Shown here in pieces: positions 276 to 6,096 of a stretch of DNA of 6,143 bases (position 1 is its first letter; each line of letters begins with the position of its first letter). The position numbers and the translations under genes are program-made. The DNA is taken from assembly GCA_964468425.1 (NCBI GenBank), contig CAYXSZ010000057.1:1-6143 (forward strand), written 5' to 3'. The notes beneath the pieces are model-generated. The model searched no databases and had not been told where the DNA came from. It saw nothing but the letters and a program-made list of their open reading frames with translations. This DNA is from Candidatus Woesearchaeota archaeon (GTDB lineage Archaea; Nanobdellota; Nanobdellia; Nanobdellales; Nanobdellaceae).

Positions 276-1229
276 TCACGAAATATATTTCAAAAGTTCT
301 CCAACAAGCTCCGTGAACTCTATCGTCGCAACTCCGATGTATTTATCAGCTGCTCCATAATAAACGAAGAGTTCATCATCTATAAGCACGCATCCATCAG
401 AAAACACGACGTTGCTAGTTTCTCCCTTTACCTCGTACCACTCCTGTGGTCCTAGGATGGGATAAGGTAGTCTAGAAAGAACTACGCAAGGGTTCTGTTT
501 GTCTAAAAGCATTGCCCCGAGCTTATAAACGTTGTCCGGACCCACTCCATGATAAATCACCACCCATCCTTCCGTAGTCTTAATAGGAGGAGCTCCAATC
601 CCAATTCGAACGGAATCCCAACTATCTTTTCGTATTTGTATGTAATCCCAACCTCTAATCCAATCCTGAAAGTATAGATCTTTTTTAAAGTCTATCCAAA
701 TGTTTGGAAAGAACCTATGGAAGAACACAAACTTTCCTTTGACTTTTTCTGGAAGCAAAGCAGCGTCTTTGTCCCAGACTCCTGGGGGGGAGATTAATCG
801 AGGATAACTCCAGTTCTCGAACCTCCTTTCCAAAAAATCTTTTATACTAATTTCGCTCAAGGCGACCCTAACGGTTAAATCGCGAGTCGCGACACACACA
901 GCTGTGTAGAGCATTACTAGCTTGTTATCTATGATAGTTACTCTAGGGTCTTCGCATCCAGAATTAAGGGTAGAGTTCTCAAGACGTTTTTCAAATGGAG
1001 CTCTTGGAACATATACTGGATTTTTAAGCCTTTCAGTAATTGAAAACCCATCTTCGCTTACAGCTAGACCAATAACCGAAACATTGTTGTGAGACATAGC
1101 TCTGTATAGCAGATATACATTTCCATCAAGCAAAACAGCAGCTGGATTGAACACAGCCTTCGACTCCCACGGATTGTTAAGATCAGGTTTCAAGATGGGG
1201 TTTCCTTCGTATCTCTTCAGCTTGATCAT
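276..1229 (-). CDS. GH130 / DUF377 family glycosidase (beta-mannoside phosphorylase family, 'PH1107-related'), paralogue 1, last gene of the operon
   Basis: 317-aa ORF with the family blocks as I recall them (Pfam PF04041, five-bladed beta-propeller): RYEGNPILKP...WESKAVFNPAAV at the N-terminus, EDPR at aa 93-96 (contains the family catalytic Asp), FFHRFFP (aa 169-175), GWVVIYHGVG (aa 221-230), and YYGAAD near the C-terminus. Clearly co-linear with paralogue 3 (PRAPFE, IKDFL, FFHRxFPxIW, WDS, YH). Its ATG at 1229-1227 overlaps the TGA of the upstream gene (ATGA). Confidence 0.85.
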   Translation of the reverse strand: MIKLKRYEGNPILKPDLNNPWESKAVFNPAAVLLDGNVYLLYRAMSHNNVSVIGLAVSEDGFSITERLKNPVYVPRAPFEKRLENSTLNSGCEDPRVTIIDNKLVMLYTAVCVATRDLTVRVALSEISIKDFLERRFENWSYPRLISPPGVWDKDAALLPEKVKGKFVFFHRFFPNIWIDFKKDLYFQDWIRGWDYIQIRKDSWDSVRIGIGAPPIKTTEGWVVIYHGVGPDNVYKLGAMLLDKQNPCVVLSRLPYPILGPQEWYEVKGETSNVVFSDGCVLIDDELFVYYGAADKYIGVATIEFTELVGELLKYIS

Positions 1230-2206
1230 TGCAAGTACCTTAACAAGTCATCAATTTCGATATATGCCTTGCAAATACATCTGTCAGCAGCCCCGTAGTA
1301 CACTTCTACTACATCCCCTTCTAAAACAGCTCCAGAGGGAAAAGCGATGCCTTCTATGGGGGAGTTGAACAGCCTTTCGTACTCCACCTCTGGAAAGAGC
1401 AAGGGCTTTTTAGTAAAACCGATCACCTCGGAAGGGTCTTCCTTGTCCAGGAGCATAGCAGATATTCTAAAGCTCCTGAACTCTCCATTTTCATAAACTA
1501 TATCAGGAATAAACATCAACCAGCCTTCATCGAGCTCTATAGGAGTGGTTCCCACTTCCACGAACTCCTTTCCCTGTTTCCCCTCTAAAACAACCTCAGC
1601 CTCTTCCCTTTCAGGGTAACTTAACACATTTTTCCAAAATTCAGGATCTTTTAGGTCTGAAATCTTATCAAAGTAAACTAAAATGATTTTGGAGGGGGGA
1701 ATATCTGGATAGATAGTTAGCATCAAGGCATAACGACCGTTGAACTTCCTTGGAAAGATAACCCCTGCTTTAGAATTAATTGGGCAAATTATTCCCTCCT
1801 TGTTGTACGATTTAAAATCTTCGGTTGTAGCGAGAGCCAACTTAACATGTTTAGGATCTGGAGGGAGCTTGGACACCGCTGTGTAACAGATGAAAAATTT
1901 TCCCTTATAATTAGAAATCCGGGGGTCTTCCGTAGAGTAACACTCCCAATGATATTCAGGTCCGAAAAAAACGCGCCTATTTTCGAAGTTTACCCCATCT
2001 TCGCTTTCTGCGATGCCTATAACGGATATATTGATGTAATCGTTTATACCTCTTTGGAGTTTTGATGTAATGGCTCTGTAAAGCATTATGTATTTTCCTT
2101 CTAGCTTTACTACGCTTGGGTTTAGAACTGCTTCCGCCTCCCACCAACTTTCCGGTTTCGGAAATAACAATGGGTTTTCTATCACCCTCTTCAGCATATT
2201 TTTCAA
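1226..2206 (-). CDS. GH130 / DUF377 family protein, divergent paralogue 2 (basic residues conserved in paralogues 1 and 3 are substituted)
   Basis: 326-aa ORF as listed, but the track start at 2206 is a TTG. The ATG at 2197 gives MLKRVIENPLLFP..., which aligns residue-for-residue with the N-terminus of paralogue 1 (MIKLKRYEGNPILKP). An AGGA lies 5 nt upstream of the TTG, so either start is possible. Family blocks present: NPLLFP...WWEAEAVLNPSVV, EDPR (aa 93-96), FPRKFNGRY, EGW, YYGAAD. A TAA in this frame immediately precedes the TTG, so the gene cannot start further upstream. Confidence 0.8.
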   Translation of the reverse strand: MKNMLKRVIENPLLFPKPESWWEAEAVLNPSVVKLEGKYIMLYRAITSKLQRGINDYINISVIGIAESEDGVNFENRRVFFGPEYHWECYSTEDPRISNYKGKFFICYTAVSKLPPDPKHVKLALATTEDFKSYNKEGIICPINSKAGVIFPRKFNGRYALMLTIYPDIPPSKIILVYFDKISDLKDPEFWKNVLSYPEREEAEVVLEGKQGKEFVEVGTTPIELDEGWLMFIPDIVYENGEFRSFRISAMLLDKEDPSEVIGFTKKPLLFPEVEYERLFNSPIEGIAFPSGAVLEGDVVEVYYGAADRCICKAYIEIDDLLRYLQ

Positions 2207-3257
2207 TTATTTCCTTCAAAATATTTAAGTCAAACTCGGCGAGACAGACGAAGAAATCCGAAGCTCCATAGTAAACTAGAAGCTTGTCTTTAATTATTAC
2301 AGCACCTGTTGGATAAATAACATTTGGTTTCGCTCTAGGATAAAGTTCGTACCAAGTCTCGGGTTCGAGAGCGGGAACATCTGACCTTAGGAAGACTTTC
2401 TCAGGATTGTCCTTTTCTAGAACCATCAGACCAGCCTTGTATCTATAACCATCGTTGACCTTGAAATCCTCTGGACGAAGGTTCATAGATCTGTACCATT
2501 CATCCCAACCAGAAACTGCATGATATACAAGCAACCATCCGAATTCGGTTTCCATAGGCGTGCTCCCAGCCCCAACTTTCCTGCTATCCCACTTGTCAGG
2601 TCTAGTGAATATCACAGGTCTTCCGAATAAAAATCTACCATTGTGGAACTCGCTCAGATCATTAACATAATCAGCCCAGATGAAAGGGAAAATCCTGTGG
2701 AAAAACAGTAATTTATTATTTATACGCTTGGGGAAGAGAACTACAGACTTGTCTGGAATCTCTGGATGGGTTATAATCACGGGTTTGCTCCACTTGTCCC
2801 AGCGTTCGTTGAGGAAATCCTTGAGCCTAATCGTGCTCATCGCAGACCTAGGAGGTTCGACTCCATTGAAAGCTACGTAAGTTAAAACTAAATTATCTCC
2901 CAGCAAGCAAATTCTGGGATCTTCAACTCCGAAATAACTTTCGCCAGAAACGTACTTCCAGTTAATGCGAGACGGATCTATTTTTAAGAAAGTGTTTATT
3001 TTATTATGCGCGTCGGGATGTATCTCGAATGGAGCTCTCGGAATATAAATCGGCTCTTCCAACCGATCTAGGATCTCATAACCATCAGAAATCGCCAAAC
3101 CCAAGGTTGAAATGTTATTTCTAGAAATTTGTCTGTATATGATGAAAACCTTGTTTCTATACATAAATGCGGTGGGATTGAACGTTCCCTGAGTCTCCCA
3201 GTCAGTACTTGGCGATATTATAGGATTATATTTATATCTCTCGAACCTTATCTCCAT
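1977..3257 (-). CDS. GH130 / DUF377 family glycosidase, paralogue 3, with two internal insertions and an anomalous 72-aa basic C-terminal extension
   Basis: 426-aa ORF. Family blocks: RYKYNPIISP...WETQGTFNPTAF, PRAPFE, EDPR (aa 112-115), FFHRIFPFIW, GWLLVYHAV, YYGASD. By comparison with paralogues 1 and 2, GH130 similarity ends at ...LKEIIEKY (aa 354, nt ~2196). The reading frame nevertheless stays open to TAG at 1977-1979, running inside paralogue 2 in another frame. ATG 3257-3255 lies within the last codons of the upstream mutase gene (10-nt overlap). The gene call is secure; the true 3' end is uncertain. Confidence 0.8.
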   Translation of the reverse strand: MEIRFERYKYNPIISPSTDWETQGTFNPTAFMYRNKVFIIYRQISRNNISTLGLAISDGYEILDRLEEPIYIPRAPFEIHPDAHNKINTFLKIDPSRINWKYVSGESYFGVEDPRICLLGDNLVLTYVAFNGVEPPRSAMSTIRLKDFLNERWDKWSKPVIITHPEIPDKSVVLFPKRINNKLLFFHRIFPFIWADYVNDLSEFHNGRFLFGRPVIFTRPDKWDSRKVGAGSTPMETEFGWLLVYHAVSGWDEWYRSMNLRPEDFKVNDGYRYKAGLMVLEKDNPEKVFLRSDVPALEPETWYELYPRAKPNVIYPTGAVIIKDKLLVYYGASDFFVCLAEFDLNILKEIIEKYAEEGDRKPIVISETGKLVGGGSSSKPKRSKARRKIHNALQSHYIKTPKRYKRLHQYIRYRHRRKRRWGKLRK

Positions 3258-4534
3258 CCTACAATAGATTTAACCTTATTTAGCAAGACTTCAAACGTTT
3301 CTCCGTTTAACGCTTCGATCTTTATTCTATACATTGGCTCTGTATTAGATTCTCTAATCAAAACTCTAGAATCTTCAAACCTTAGATCGTAGCCGTCTAT
3401 AGTGATCGTCTCATCCGGATCGAATGAAGAAATGAACACCTCCAGATTCACCCTATCCTTTGGAACATCTAAGCGAGTTTGATATATTTTCGGATAATCT
3501 CGCTCAAAACCGATTTCCTCTATCAATTTAACTATTTTTAGGAAGGTGTAAAGAGCGTCATCGATGTAGTAAAATTCTCTAAACCCAAAATGCCCAGAAT
3601 ACTCACCAAAAAACTTAGCATCGTATTCTCTTGCGTATTTTTTGACATTCACGTGTCCCGTGGGAACTCGAACTACCTTAATCCCGAGATCTTCGAGTAG
3701 GTGATCTAGAACAAAAGGCAGCATAACTTCGAGAACTACGACATCTCCTCGCTTCAAGTAACTTTTAGCTACGAAATAGACGAGCTCATCAGATTTTATC
3801 CACTCTCCCCGGTATACGAATCCCAAGCGATCACAATCTCCATCAAGAGCTAACCCAAATTCGCAATTCTTAGATACAACCTCTGAAATCAACTGCTTAA
3901 GGTTTTCCTCTTTAGAAGGATCTGGAGGGTGTGCAGGAAAATGCCCGTCGGGAATAGAATTTATTTCAATGAGCTTAAATTTACTTGAAAGAAAATCCGA
4001 ATAGATAAAACCAGATCCGTTAGCGGGATCGTACACCAACGAGTGCGTATCCTTGAATTCAAATTCTGAGTCTAAAAACTCAAAGTACTCGTTTACTCTC
4101 CAAAATCTATTTTCAATCTTCGGACTTTTTGGTTTAAGGTTGTTGGGAGCTACCTCAAACAGCTCCTTAAGTTGCGAGAGCTCCTGAGGTTCGAGATCGT
4201 TTGCACCCGCTTTTATGGGCTTAATACCGTTGTATTCGGGAGGATTGTGCGAAGCTGTGATCATTAAAACATCCACATCGTCAACTACAGACATGTAGTG
4301 CGAAACTGGAGTAGATACAATCCCATAATCATAAATTTCCTTATTTAAGTACCTGCACAGAATGTTAAACATTATATCAGAAGAATATCTTATATCTCTT
4401 CCAATTCCCACTATTTCTTCAGAAAAAAACTCAGAAAAGGCGTAAGCGAGAGATTTAATGGAAGAGGGAGTCAAATCCTTGCCCCAAACACCTCTAACGT
4501 CATAAGCACCAAACATTTTACGTTTTTTGAGCAT
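3248..4534 (-). CDS. alpha-D-phosphohexomutase superfamily enzyme (phosphomannomutase/phosphoglucomutase type), first gene of the operon
   Basis: 428-aa ORF carrying all four superfamily motifs in canonical order. These are the phosphoserine loop TASHNP (aa 93-98, nt 4241-4258; verified as ACA GCT TCG CAC AAT CCT), the metal loop DGDCDR (aa 231-236, nt 3827-3844), the sugar loop GEYSGH (aa 310-315) and the phosphate loop RESNTEP (aa 394-400). There is also an N-terminal FGAYDVRG. Sequence alone cannot separate PMM, PGM and GlmM specificity; the GH130 context favours PMM. An alternative start at ATG 4516 (MFGAYDVRG...) is suggested by the position of the TATA-like element. Confidence 0.9.
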   Translation of the reverse strand: MLKKRKMFGAYDVRGVWGKDLTPSSIKSLAYAFSEFFSEEIVGIGRDIRYSSDIMFNILCRYLNKEIYDYGIVSTPVSHYMSVVDDVDVLMITASHNPPEYNGIKPIKAGANDLEPQELSQLKELFEVAPNNLKPKSPKIENRFWRVNEYFEFLDSEFEFKDTHSLVYDPANGSGFIYSDFLSSKFKLIEINSIPDGHFPAHPPDPSKEENLKQLISEVVSKNCEFGLALDGDCDRLGFVYRGEWIKSDELVYFVAKSYLKRGDVVVLEVMLPFVLDHLLEDLGIKVVRVPTGHVNVKKYAREYDAKFFGEYSGHFGFREFYYIDDALYTFLKIVKLIEEIGFERDYPKIYQTRLDVPKDRVNLEVFISSFDPDETITIDGYDLRFEDSRVLIRESNTEPMYRIKIEALNGETFEVLLNKVKSIVGWR

Positions 4535-4686
4535 GTACTTTTAAATTTGATGAATCCACTAGAGAATGGTTAAACCAACTAATAAAGACTTGAATGTTGC
4601 ATCTAAAGTCCCAAATTGGCAACAATTTCTTAATTGAAAAATCTTTAAATAAAATATTTAATAAGTTTTGTTAAAAGTTAAAAACT
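4535..4686. promoter_or_regulatory. Divergent intergenic promoter region with TATA-like elements for both flanking genes
   Basis: A 152-bp, very AT-rich gap between divergent starts. The minus-strand element AAATTTAAAA (4548->4539) is centred ~27 nt upstream of the second in-frame ATG of the mutase (4516) and only ~9 nt from the first (4534). The plus-strand element TATTTAATAA (4655-4664) is centred ~27 nt upstream of ATG 4687; an alternative TTTAAATA lies at 4644-4651. There is no GGAGG-like Shine-Dalgarno before 4687. Archaeal TATA boxes sit about 26-27 nt upstream of the transcription start. TATA-like strings are common by chance in AT-rich DNA. Confidence 0.4.
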
Positions 4687-5370
4687 ATGCAAGATTACGC
4701 AGTAGCAATTCTGGAAAGAGGAAAATGCGTGTGGGGTAGCTGTTATTTTTGTGGTTGGGGTAAAAAATACAAAGAAGTTTCTATTGAAGACTTAAAAAAG
4801 AAATTTTTGAAAGTTATTCAAAGAAAAGCTTATGGTATTAAAATCTTTAGCTCTGGAAGCTTTTTAGATGAAAAACAATTTCCACTAGAATTTGTTAAGT
4901 GGTGTATTGCGACTGCGAAGGAAAAAGGGTTTAAAGAAATAATTTTCGAGTCGAGACCTGAATTCATAACTGAAGAAAAATTAAAAGAAATAAAAACTGA
5001 CGGAATTAAGATCACGGTTGCTATTGGTCTCGAAGCCGCGAATAACGAAATTCTATTAAAATACTACAACAAAGGTTTTACCGTAGAAGACTATTTGAGA
5101 GCGGTAGATCTTCTCAGAAAACACGATTTTGGAGTCCGAACATATGTTTTGGTTAACGGTCATCCAGTATTATATAAAAATCAAGAGCTTCAGAGAAAAG
5201 TTTTGGAAAAGACTATAGATTTGACAATGCAAACTTCAGATTCGATTGTAATAATTAATGCTTACCCACACAAAGATTCTAAGCTTCTGTTGGACTGGAT
5301 GAATAAAGAATGGTTTCCACTGGACAAGCAACAATTTTACAACCTTGTTTTAAATGTTCTTAAAAAATAT
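4687..5370 (+). other. Radical-SAM (RaSEA-like) domain of the fusion protein, approx. aa 1-228
   Basis: Cys triad encoded at nt 4726-4752 (TGC at 4726-4728 checked). SSGSFLD at aa 55-61, ESRPEF at aa 88-93, GLEAAN at aa 114-119. Domain limits are estimated by eye. Confidence 0.6.
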
Positions 5371-6096
5371 AGCACATCTCAAGCGGATGACAAAATATTC
5401 ATTGTAAAAAAAGACGATAAAGATATTCTTATTGAATTGGATTTTGACAACTTTAATTTCATTCCAAGAATCCCCAAAGATATGCAAACTTTTATAAAAG
5501 GAGTTGGAAAAAAGGTTTTGTTACACCCCCACTTTGAAATATGGCAAGACTTCTTTGTAAGATTTTATAAGCCACCAGAAGAAAAGATTTATGCACTTTT
5601 TCTCCCTTGTTCATTCAGAAAGCCGTATAAGCGCTCTAAAACACATAAAAGTATTATAAGAGCCATTTCAGGATATCCCTGGTTCAAAAAGCTTCATTTA
5701 ATTGTCGTATCTACTCCAGGAGTCGTTCCATGGGAATTTCACGATAGATATCCATTTACACATTATGATTGGCCAGAATGGGAGGAAACAGAAGAAGTTA
5801 AAAAAGATTACATTGAAATAACTAAAGAGAGAGTTAAAAAATACATTGAATCTCATAAAGATCATTATAAGCTTTACTTTGCTTATTTTCATCTAGAATC
5901 TGAGACCTTAGAAGCCATAAAGCAAGCTTTTGAAGAGTTAAATCTCAAAGGTAAATTAATCGAAGTATTAGACAACGAAACTTATGAAAAAATAAAGGAA
6001 GAATTTGGAGATAAGCGAATAGGAAGCTCAGTAGTTAGACATCCCCTAGCTATAAAAAAATTGAAAGAAGTTGTAAATAACTGCTTAACAGTTTAA
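4687..6096 (+). CDS. Fusion protein: radical-SAM domain (RaSEA / TIGR01210-like) + ArcS-type DUF5591 domain; putative single-chain archaeosine synthase
   Basis: 469-aa ORF. The N-terminal half has a Cys triad C14-X4-C19-X2-C22 (ERGKCVWGSCYFCGWG), SSGSFLD (GGE-like SAM motif), ESRPEF and AIGLEAAN blocks typical of Elp3/YhcC/TIGR01210-like radical SAM enzymes. The C-terminal half has LFLPCSFRKPYKRSKTH (aa 305-320), which exactly fits the PC-X3-KPY-X2-S-X2-H signature reported for archaeosine synthase ArcS. It is followed by VVSTPGVVPWEF...YPFTHYDWP.W, typical of DUF5591. There is no internal stop or frame change between the halves. Confidence 0.75.
   Translation: MQDYAVAILERGKCVWGSCYFCGWGKKYKEVSIEDLKKKFLKVIQRKAYGIKIFSSGSFLDEKQFPLEFVKWCIATAKEKGFKEIIFESRPEFITEEKLKEIKTDGIKITVAIGLEAANNEILLKYYNKGFTVEDYLRAVDLLRKHDFGVRTYVLVNGHPVLYKNQELQRKVLEKTIDLTMQTSDSIVIINAYPHKDSKLLLDWMNKEWFPLDKQQFYNLVLNVLKKYSTSQADDKIFIVKKDDKDILIELDFDNFNFIPRIPKDMQTFIKGVGKKVLLHPHFEIWQDFFVRFYKPPEEKIYALFLPCSFRKPYKRSKTHKSIIRAISGYPWFKKLHLIVVSTPGVVPWEFHDRYPFTHYDWPEWEETEEVKKDYIEITKERVKKYIESHKDHYKLYFAYFHLESETLEAIKQAFEELNLKGKLIEVLDNETYEKIKEEFGDKRIGSSVVRHPLAIKKLKEVVNNCLTV
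5572..6093 (+). other. ArcS-type DUF5591 domain of the fusion protein, approx. aa 296-469
   Basis: Signature PCSFRKPYKRSKTH encoded at nt 5605-5646 (CCT TGT at 5605-5610 checked). Downstream block HLIVVSTPGVVPWEFHDRYPFTHYDWPEWEE. Domain limits are estimated by eye. Aa 229-295 between the two domains match nothing I recognise. Confidence 0.6.

Follow-up and report, generated by a model that had tools for sequence, protein, structure and literature searches.

A radical-SAM/DUF5591 fusion protein widespread in uncultured archaea and probably a single-chain archaeosine synthase

The window analysed here is the whole 6,143-nt stretch of contig CAYXSZ010000057.1 from a Candidatus Woesearchaeota archaeon, and it carries five substantial open reading frames (ORFs). 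A phosphomannomutase gene and three GH130 genes are divergent from the fifth, which runs without interruption from an ATG start to a TAA stop (4687..6096, plus strand) and encodes a protein of 469 aa. This protein joins a module resembling RaSEA, the radical S-adenosylmethionine (SAM) enzyme of archaeosine synthesis, to the C1 domain of ArcS, and we think that it is probably a single-chain archaeosine synthase whose substrate would be the preQ0-tRNA that ArcTGT produces. An earlier reading of the letters alone (the original prediction) had proposed such a RaSEA-ArcS Rosetta-stone fusion in one uninterrupted ORF; the motifs it quoted are all present, and the fusion itself is now supported by homology, by its recurrence in 80 or more loci, by the predicted fold and by linkage to tgtA.

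In the two-protein pathway, the transglycosylase ArcTGT puts preQ0 at G15 of tRNA and ArcS adds lysine to the nitrile (PMC11298593), while RaSEA, a radical-SAM enzyme in tight complex with ArcS, turns preQ0-Lys into archaeosine (G+) (PMC11298593, summarising Yokogawa et al. 2019). The ArcS of T. kodakarensis is active only in complex with RaSEA, and ArcS does not bind ArcTGT (PMC11298593). The domain catalogued as DUF5591 is the C1 domain of ArcS, and PC-X3-KPY-X2-S-X2-H is the C1 signature (bioRxiv 10.1101/2023.04.13.536721; PMC5699537). The fusion gene has the following features, for which conservation was read from alignment A1 (41 sequences).

4687..6096, plus strand: complete gene for the 469-aa RaSEA-like/ArcS-C1 fusion protein (ORF list, Pfam, homologues, AlphaFold2 model)
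4687..5448, plus strand: N-terminal radical-SAM module, RaSEA-like, aa 1 to about 254 (TIGR01210, queuine lyase 6p78, AlphaFold2 strands, Foldseek, family member P0128)
4726..4752, plus strand: [4Fe-4S] motif C14-x4-C19-x2-C22, CVWGSCYFC (sequence; queuine lyase has an equal C-x4-C-x2-C spacing)
4849..5043, plus strand: radical-SAM core motifs SSGSFLD (aa 55-61), ESRPEF (aa 88-93) and GLEAAN (aa 114-119) (A1)
5368..5430, plus strand: clade-specific insertion, about aa 228-248 (~18 aa), a predicted beta-hairpin (locus comparison, AlphaFold2 strands 230-252)
5440..5586, plus strand: conserved junction element, aa 252-300 (DFDNFNFIPRIP...GVG...LLHPHFEIWQDFFVRFYKPP), not a linker (A1, conservation, ArcS alignment)
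5545..5952, plus strand: DUF5591/ArcS C1 catalytic domain, aa 287-422 (PF17884, 2q07, model of the nt-1 ArcS2)
5605..5646, plus strand: ArcS signature PC-X3-KPY-X2-S-X2-H, PCSFRKPYKRSKTH, aa 307-320 (sequence, A1)
5764..5787, plus strand: family-specific invariant block YDWPEWEE, aa 360-367 (Y360, D361, W362, E364 and E367 invariant in A1)
5953..6093, plus strand: C-terminal helical tail, aa 423-469, at the place where canonical ArcS has C2 and PUA (AlphaFold2 helices, no PUA match)

Both halves of the protein could be assigned to their families. The N-terminal half matches Pfam Radical_SAM (PF04055) over aa 14-158 (E 1.8e-14, 54.7 bits for a cut-off of 29.5) with the triad C14/C19/C22 in place, and its best NCBIfam match is RaSEA TIGR01210 over aa 5-167 (model positions 16-186, E 1.4e-34, 119.8 bits), the next radical-SAM family scoring 32 bits. 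The C-terminal half matches Pfam DUF5591 (PF17884) over aa 287-422 (E 3.1e-18, 66.5 bits for a cut-off of 26) and contains the C1 signature; its only NCBIfam matches are the ArcS models NF040592 (aa 292-418, E 1.8e-17) and NF053620 (aa 267-447, E 5.8e-17), of which the C1 region alone aligns. Among the proteins of the PDB, queuine lyase 6p78 matches aa 6-219 (E 5e-6) and AF0587 (2q07) matches the C-terminal half (E 1.9e-8), and residues 278-363 are 45% identical (E 7e-23) to those of a canonical 621-aa ArcS with DUF5591 and PUA domains (P0170). No PUA or TGT (tRNA-guanine transglycosylase) domain was matched in the 469-aa protein with Pfam or NCBIfam. The hmmscan comparison suggested at the outset thus recovered both halves and no PUA, as predicted. 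The accompanying claim that the chain has no room for C1, C2 and PUA held for the last two, which are missing together with the TGT-like N-terminal domain of canonical ArcS, and failed for C1, which is retained as DUF5591. The tail that follows C1 is ~47 aa long and can be aligned with the tail that closes the C1 module in P0146, a protein of reverse domain order described below.

The residues on which both activities should depend are strongly conserved. Locus analyses cover the best 80 loci of a scan of GTDB, all of them from metagenome-assembled genomes (MAGs), and the Cys triad is intact in each of the 79 that cover the N-terminus. S56, G57, S58, D61, E88, G114, L115 and E116 of the radical-SAM core are invariant in A1, as are P307, C308, K312, P313, Y314 and S317 of the C1 signature. 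The part C-x3-KPY-x2-S is kept in 80 of 80 loci, and the first motif position, usually P, is Q in two and T in one, so that the motif of the family reads [P/Q/T]C-x3-KPY-x2-S-x2-[H/W]. Its last residue (H320 in the window, nt 5644-5646) is His in the DPANN archaea and in the clade of the window. Two blocks, DFxNFxFxP and YDWPEWEE, are not found in canonical ArcS, in which the corresponding sequence is YPAAHYDIP. Pairwise identities of the N-terminal and C-terminal halves correlate with each other (r = 0.72 over 3240 pairs), as would fit one old fusion that has evolved as a unit.

The region between both domains had been described as an unassigned linker of ~65 aa (aa 229-295), and this description had to be abandoned. 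Mean column conservation reaches 0.63 over aa 255-300, compared with 0.64 in the catalytic core and 0.55 in the radical-SAM core, and F258, P260, G272, H280, W286 and Q287 are invariant in A1. The NF053620 alignment begins at aa 267 and that with the canonical ArcS P0170 at aa 278. As judged from these alignments, aa 229-295 are homologous to RaSEA and ArcS, save for the clade-specific insertion of ~18 aa. This insertion region is the least conserved of all (0.21) and is not present in most family members: the segment equivalent to aa 226-254 measures 29 residues in the window, 25 in its relatives from Thermodiscus, Acidilobaceae and Iainarchaeum, and 7-12 elsewhere.

The AlphaFold2 model of the whole chain has a mean predicted local distance difference test (pLDDT) score of 94.4 and a predicted template modelling (pTM) score of 0.88, and every 10-residue block, including those of the supposed linker, reaches at least 81, which suggests a compact chain with a fixed arrangement of the two domains and no low-confidence linker. 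The radical-SAM part, which had been taken as truncated, is modelled with strands at 4-9, 50-55, 84-88, 108-116, 149-156 and 186-191 and is therein predicted to be a complete six-strand beta/alpha core, not a stump; in the family member P0128, the first 252 residues align to positions 13-258 of the 313 of the RaSEA model. Helices are predicted in the C-terminal tail at 430-440, 447-451 and 453-468. Foldseek relates the N-terminal half to Elp3, MgmA and queuine lyase 6p78, and the C-terminal half to AF0587 (2q07). The best match in a library of viral protein structures is the DUF5591 protein of Vibrio phage nt-1, ArcS2 (template modelling score of 0.73 over 210 columns, root-mean-square deviation of 2.9 Å, 23% identity), a superposition from which the last ~210 residues are predicted to form a complete ArcS2-like module. 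The physical complex of RaSEA with the catalytic subunit of ArcS is here realized by covalent fusion in 80 or more loci, in an arrangement predicted with the pTM given above. The original prediction proposed a comparison with a published structure of the ArcS-RaSEA complex; none was found in the PDB by sequence or fold search, and as of 2024 such a structure was still needed (PMC11298593).

Far from being rare, the fusion architecture is common among uncultured archaea of the DPANN, TACK and Asgard groups. When 5.8 billion protein clusters were searched, at least 331 matched; the top 120 all share the architecture, with lengths of 405-490 aa and 89-100% query coverage, and their precomputed Pfam annotation gives Radical_SAM plus DUF5591 for 110 and DUF5591 only for 10. 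One of the clusters has a 99%-identical representative (P0001), and the orthologue P0002, of equal length and 76% identity, lies in a locus of identical synteny (L001). The scan of GTDB, with one genome per species and the YDWPEWEE block as pattern, found relatives in 107 species. The DPANN sources of the 80 best loci are Iain-, Micr-, Nano-, Aenigmat-, Woese-, Parv-, Nanohalo- and Altiarchaeota; the others are Thermodiscus, Acidilobaceae, Desulfurococcales, Thermoproteales, Thermofilaceae, Culexmicrobium, Methanomethylicia, a bin labelled Korarchaeia and Asgardarchaeum abyssi. The sole match labelled as euryarchaeal, a Methanosarcinales MAG, is a contig of 2.3 kb with DPANN-type synteny and was probably mis-binned. 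Homologues are named "DUF5591 domain-containing protein" or "radical SAM protein", and in JGI data "archaeosine synthase" or "radical SAM enzyme (TIGR01210 family)"; the family is widespread, automatically annotated and uncharacterised. We found no description of a radical-SAM/DUF5591 fusion in the literature searched, outside Yokogawa 2019 and Phillips 2010 and 2012, which may mention it.

The proposed survey of DUF5591 architectures was realized as an exhaustive phmmer search, using aa 255-469 as the query against 1.84 billion representatives, and gave 545 clusters at E <= 1e-3, 81 at E <= 1e-10 and 16 at E <= 1e-30. It showed five architectures:

radical-SAM module followed by C1, the fusion, 400-490 aa
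C1 only, 190-300 aa
canonical ArcS, 500-680 aa, with the match near residues 280-400
radical-SAM module, insert and C1, 635 aa
reverse order (P0146), 680 aa

In P0146, C1 (aa 82-236) precedes a near-full RaSEA (aa 339-610, model positions 15-298, 132 bits). Its gene starts 15 nt downstream of a 376-aa PUA-less gene of the TGT family (L088 8855-14501; also L089), which is closest to ArcTGT (96.8 bits, below the cut-off), and is followed by two unannotated genes of ~390 aa each, on a bacterial-looking contig with OEP/RND efflux genes. A search for relatives showed P0146 to be essentially a singleton, known from two contigs. As an independent Rosetta stone that ties C1 and RaSEA to a transglycosylase, it supports the functional coupling of these activities, not the existence of a family; the locus may be a 7-deazaguanine modification cassette for a target other than tRNA. 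Among the C1-only proteins, P0273 (L090 2605-3351; also P0127) is a genuine 248-aa protein, 43% identical to the C-terminal half of the fusion, which begins at the equivalent of fusion residue ~204 and has lost the radical-SAM core, with no radical-SAM gene adjoining. It may be either a degenerate derivative of the fusion or a stand-alone enzyme like ArcS2.

The gene neighbourhoods connect the family to archaeosine. When the neighbours in the 80 loci were clustered, one family of ~565 aa stood out, with members in 31 of the 80, and it corresponds to TgtA (ArcTGT): against TIGR00432, for which the cut-off is 350, two of its representatives reach 493 and 422 bits, one of them with a PUA-type C-terminus. 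tgtA lies within 10 kb of the fusion gene in 31/80 loci, in 16 of the 31 loci whose flanks extend for 9 kb or more to each side, and as the immediate neighbour in 13 loci, for a chance expectation of about one tgtA in 1.1 Mb of flanking sequence; the locus counts are phylogenetically non-independent. There are nevertheless two different arrangements: in DPANN archaea, tgtA is divergent from the fusion gene across gaps of 37-53 bp, and in two Thermoproteota/Korarchaeia MAGs it immediately follows the fusion gene on the same strand, and the two ORFs overlap. The remaining neighbours that recur have housekeeping functions (PepQ-like peptidase, DnaG primase, RNA 2',3'-cyclic phosphodiesterase). 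Among the annotated recurrent neighbour clusters of the 80 loci (1-6 and 8-10), there is no queC, queD or queE, and no second DUF5591, RaSEA or TGT paralogue occurs in these loci; radical-SAM genes neighbouring the fusion in L002 and L004 were considered as stand-alone RaSEA and rejected, being MoaA-like or HxsC-like. As a separate observation, a synteny block recurs in many DPANN MAGs (L028-L087), made of tgtA, the fusion gene, the genes for the PepQ-like peptidase, the DnaG primase and the RNA 2',3'-cyclic phosphodiesterase, an OB-fold protein and a P-loop ATPase.

Given what is shown here on domain identity, conservation, compactness of the predicted fold, breadth of distribution and linkage to tgtA, we propose the following scheme, in which the lysine donor, the G+ product and the tRNA substrate are presumed. 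ArcTGT (TgtA), which has its own PUA domain and recognizes the D-arm, would install preQ0 at G15 of tRNA. The fusion itself would be a covalent union of the beta subunit (RaSEA, the radical-SAM lyase) and the C1 core of the alpha subunit (ArcS, the lysine transferase). Its C-terminal module (aa ~255-469, with PCxxxKPYxxS) would attach the epsilon-amine of lysine to the nitrile of preQ0, yielding preQ0-Lys; homology and the tgtA linkage are what point to this transfer at tRNA position 15. The N-terminal module (aa 1-254) would bind a [4Fe-4S] cluster through C14/C19/C22, cleave SAM and remove the carbon skeleton of lysine, leaving the formamidine of G+. Since the choice of substrate is left to ArcTGT, the synthase would have to see only the preQ0 nucleotide and could do without TGT-like, C2 and PUA domains. 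How tRNA is recognized without PUA had been raised as a question, and published work largely answers it: the ArcS-RaSEA complex of T. kodakarensis modifies the preQ0 nucleoside and its 5'-monophosphate, specificity coming from ArcTGT (PMC11298593). Since this complex accepts the nucleoside and ArcTGT selects the tRNA, the missing PUA does not appear to us as a serious puzzle.

Several observations weigh against this scheme. The TIGR01210 score of 119.8 bits is below the equivalog cut-off of 212 (313-position model), and the ArcS scores of 63.2 bits (NF040592) and 61.3 bits (NF053620) are below equivalog cut-offs of 440 and 600; such values are expected because long models align only in part, and they would leave equivalence to RaSEA and ArcS uncertified by equivalog scores. 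The residue ending the C1 motif is Trp in Thermofilaceae, Methanomethylicia, Culexmicrobium, the Korarchaeia bin, Asgardarchaeum and some others, so the chemistry may differ, and the "defining" His of the ArcS motif could be either dispensable or the marker of a functional split. The linkage to tgtA, seen across loci, is not seen in the window: neither tgtA nor preQ0 genes were found within its 6 kb, the window neighbours of the fusion gene (phosphomannomutase, three GH130) include no gene of 7-deazaguanine metabolism, and the closest clade (Thermodiscus, Acidilobaceae and Iainarchaeum MAGs) lacks tgtA adjacency as well. Finally, the C1-only ArcS2 of phage nt-1 gives dG+ in E. coli without RaSEA (bioRxiv 10.1101/2023.04.13.536721), and the ArcS of M. 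jannaschii was reported to use Gln, Asn or NH4+ (PMC11298593), from which it follows that lysine is not the sole possible donor for C1 domains.

These points leave room for other functions, which we compared with the scheme above. The fusion could act on a substrate other than tRNA, namely the free preQ0 base, a nucleoside or nucleotide, other RNAs or DNA (giving dG+); with free preQ0, this would amount to a salvage or pre-insertion route to the G+ base. The absence of all of the PUA, C2 and TGT-like domains, the activity of the T. kodakarensis complex on the preQ0 nucleoside and 5'-monophosphate (PMC11298593), the resemblance of the N-terminal half to queuine lyase 6p78, a free-nucleoside enzyme, the DNA-modifying ArcS2 of phage nt-1 as the closest viral structural match, and the position of P0146 beside a PUA-less TGT-family gene on a bacterial-looking contig all speak in this sense. 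We nevertheless judge it unlikely, since the TgtA linked in 31 loci scores above the tRNA-G15 equivalog cut-off and has a PUA, the G+ base is not used by canonical arcTGT (PMC5485725), and the fusion resides in chromosomal housekeeping contexts unlike the viral or defence-island context of phage ArcS2 or Dpd-type systems: no relatives occur in 2.9 million viral contigs, no defence system was matched by PADLOC and no DpdA-type gene was seen as a neighbour.

The enzyme could also be a diverged paralogue with a different end product, such as a stable amino-acid adduct of preQ0, the product of another amine donor or that of another radical 7-deazaguanine chemistry. Hidden Markov model scores well below the equivalog cut-offs, the change of the motif His to Trp in a large subclade, the blocks DFxNFxFxP and YDWPEWEE that canonical ArcS does not have and the ~55 unmatched last positions of the RaSEA model would agree with such divergence. 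Against it stand RaSEA and ArcS as the unique best matches of the two halves, the strict conservation of the Cys triad and catalytic motifs, the linkage to tgtA and a distribution complementary to that of the two-subunit enzyme, within lineages for which G+ has been called quasi-universal (PMC5485725), and we hold it for quite improbable. For a short metagenomic contig of 6143 bp with a compositional step just upstream of the gene, one might fear an artefact in which an error of sequencing, assembly or frameshift made one ORF out of two neighbouring genes. Comparative data refute this, and we reject it with near certainty: the architecture is uninterrupted in 80 independent loci of GTDB and in at least 331 protein clusters, which come from several sources of data, the orthologue of 76% identity has the same length and synteny, the junction is among the most conserved parts and the predicted fold is compact.

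If the fusion is indeed a single-chain archaeosine synthase, the lysine-adduct/radical-SAM route extends to DPANN, Thermoproteota, Korarchaeia, Methanomethylicia and Asgard archaea, as another solution beside QueF-L and GAT-QueC. Canonical arcS and RaSEA are euryarchaeal, and most Crenarchaeota are without arcS and use QueF-L or GAT-QueC (PMC11298593, PMC5485725); the phyletic pattern of the fusion is DPANN, TACK and Asgard. The minimal catalytic unit would then be C1 plus a radical-SAM core, which fits the 2024 result on the preQ0 nucleoside, and hundreds of entries named "DUF5591 domain-containing" or "radical SAM protein" would gain a specific annotation. A single chain, probably thermostable and with a confident AlphaFold2 model, is also an attractive structural target for studying how preQ0-Lys is handed over between active sites. 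A bolder idea, which we regard as possible and rather doubtful, is that, for most of the diversity of archaea (DPANN, TACK, Asgard), the radical-SAM/C1 fusion is the main archaeosine synthase and perhaps the ancestral one. In that case, the lysine-adduct/radical route would be near-universal and euryarchaeal ArcS would have gained its TGT-like, C2 and PUA domains later, as additions dispensable for catalysis; the PUA-free enzyme would modify any preQ0-bearing nucleic acid supplied by a transglycosylase, and the reverse-order P0146 beside a PUA-less TGT would be a spin-off with a non-tRNA target.

The rest of the window provides the setting of the gene. One further feature lies between the fusion gene and its divergent neighbour:

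4535..4686, no strand assigned: AT-rich divergent intergenic region shared with the phosphomannomutase gene (sequence)

It contains a TATA-like tttaaata at 4644-4651 and is a candidate promoter. Scans of the window gave no tRNAs, no Rfam matches and no terminators, and promoter scans of the sigma-70 type do not apply to archaea. The small ORFs antisense to the fusion gene (4830..5015 and 5698..5892) were discarded for want of support.

On the minus strand (276-4534), three tandem, mutually divergent GH130 paralogues of the beta-1,4-mannooligosaccharide phosphorylase family are followed by the phosphomannomutase/phosphoglucomutase gene, a set that looks like a mannoside phosphorolysis operon and is also kept in L001. 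With its 3' end, the third GH130 gene (1977..3257) overlaps the 5' end of the second (1226..2206) over 230 nt, out of frame (1977-2206, minus strand). Within the overlap, the upstream gene extends past its GH130 domain by a tail of ~55-75 aa, extremely basic (…KPKRSKARRKIHNALQSHYIKTPKRYKRLHQYIRYRHRRKRRWGKLRK) and conserved in the L001 orthologue (87% identity overall; L001 region about 7000-7417). The overlap may be true dual coding or a stop-free alternative frame. A compositional step is situated at ~4535-4686: the GH130 and phosphomannomutase genes have a GC content of 0.39-0.42 (0.38-0.44 at third codon positions, GC3) and the fusion gene one of 0.32 (GC3 0.27), while in L001, the syntenic relative, GC3 is 0.17-0.25 in all genes. 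Differential drift could account for the step, as could a recombination boundary or an assembly that is chimeric between related populations.

Known systems allow the family to be placed. QueF-like and GAT-QueC enzymes of Crenarchaeota probably perform the same step, preQ0-tRNA to G+-tRNA, in archaea without canonical ArcS (PMC5485725), but through unrelated folds and chemistries (T-fold, thioimide and NH4+ for QueF-like, glutamine amidotransferase for GAT-QueC) and with no sequence similarity to the fusion. Queuine lyase 6p78 and the other TIGR01210, TIGR01212 and Elp3-like enzymes belong to the same radical-SAM subgroup as the fusion, have an equal Cys spacing and a similarly compact core (~230 aa), and act on 7-deazaguanine nucleosides or tRNA; similarity to them is much weaker than to RaSEA (E 5e-6 versus 1.4e-34), they have no C1 and they catalyse another reaction. 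The C1-only ArcS2 proteins (Vibrio phage nt-1, STSV2) and AF0587 (2q07) have in common with the fusion the catalytic motif and the absence of a TGT-like domain. Unlike the fusion, they are without a radical-SAM domain, and AF0587 has a PUA; ArcS2 acts on DNA and makes dG+ without RaSEA, whereas the fusion family does not occur in viral contigs.

The closest comparison is with the two-subunit ArcS and RaSEA, with which the fusion shares the RaSEA-type C-x4-C-x2-C radical-SAM core, the ArcS C1 motif and the gene link to ArcTGT. It differs by being one chain of 469 aa in place of roughly 575 + 313 aa, by the absence of the TGT-like N-terminal domain, C2 and PUA, by leaving the last ~55 positions of the RaSEA model unmatched, by its own blocks DFxNFxFxP and YDWPEWEE, and by its occurrence in DPANN, TACK and Asgard archaea as opposed to Euryarchaeota. 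That two subunits of a known complex are fused is not in itself surprising: the obligate physical association of both activities has, in the fusion, been made covalent.

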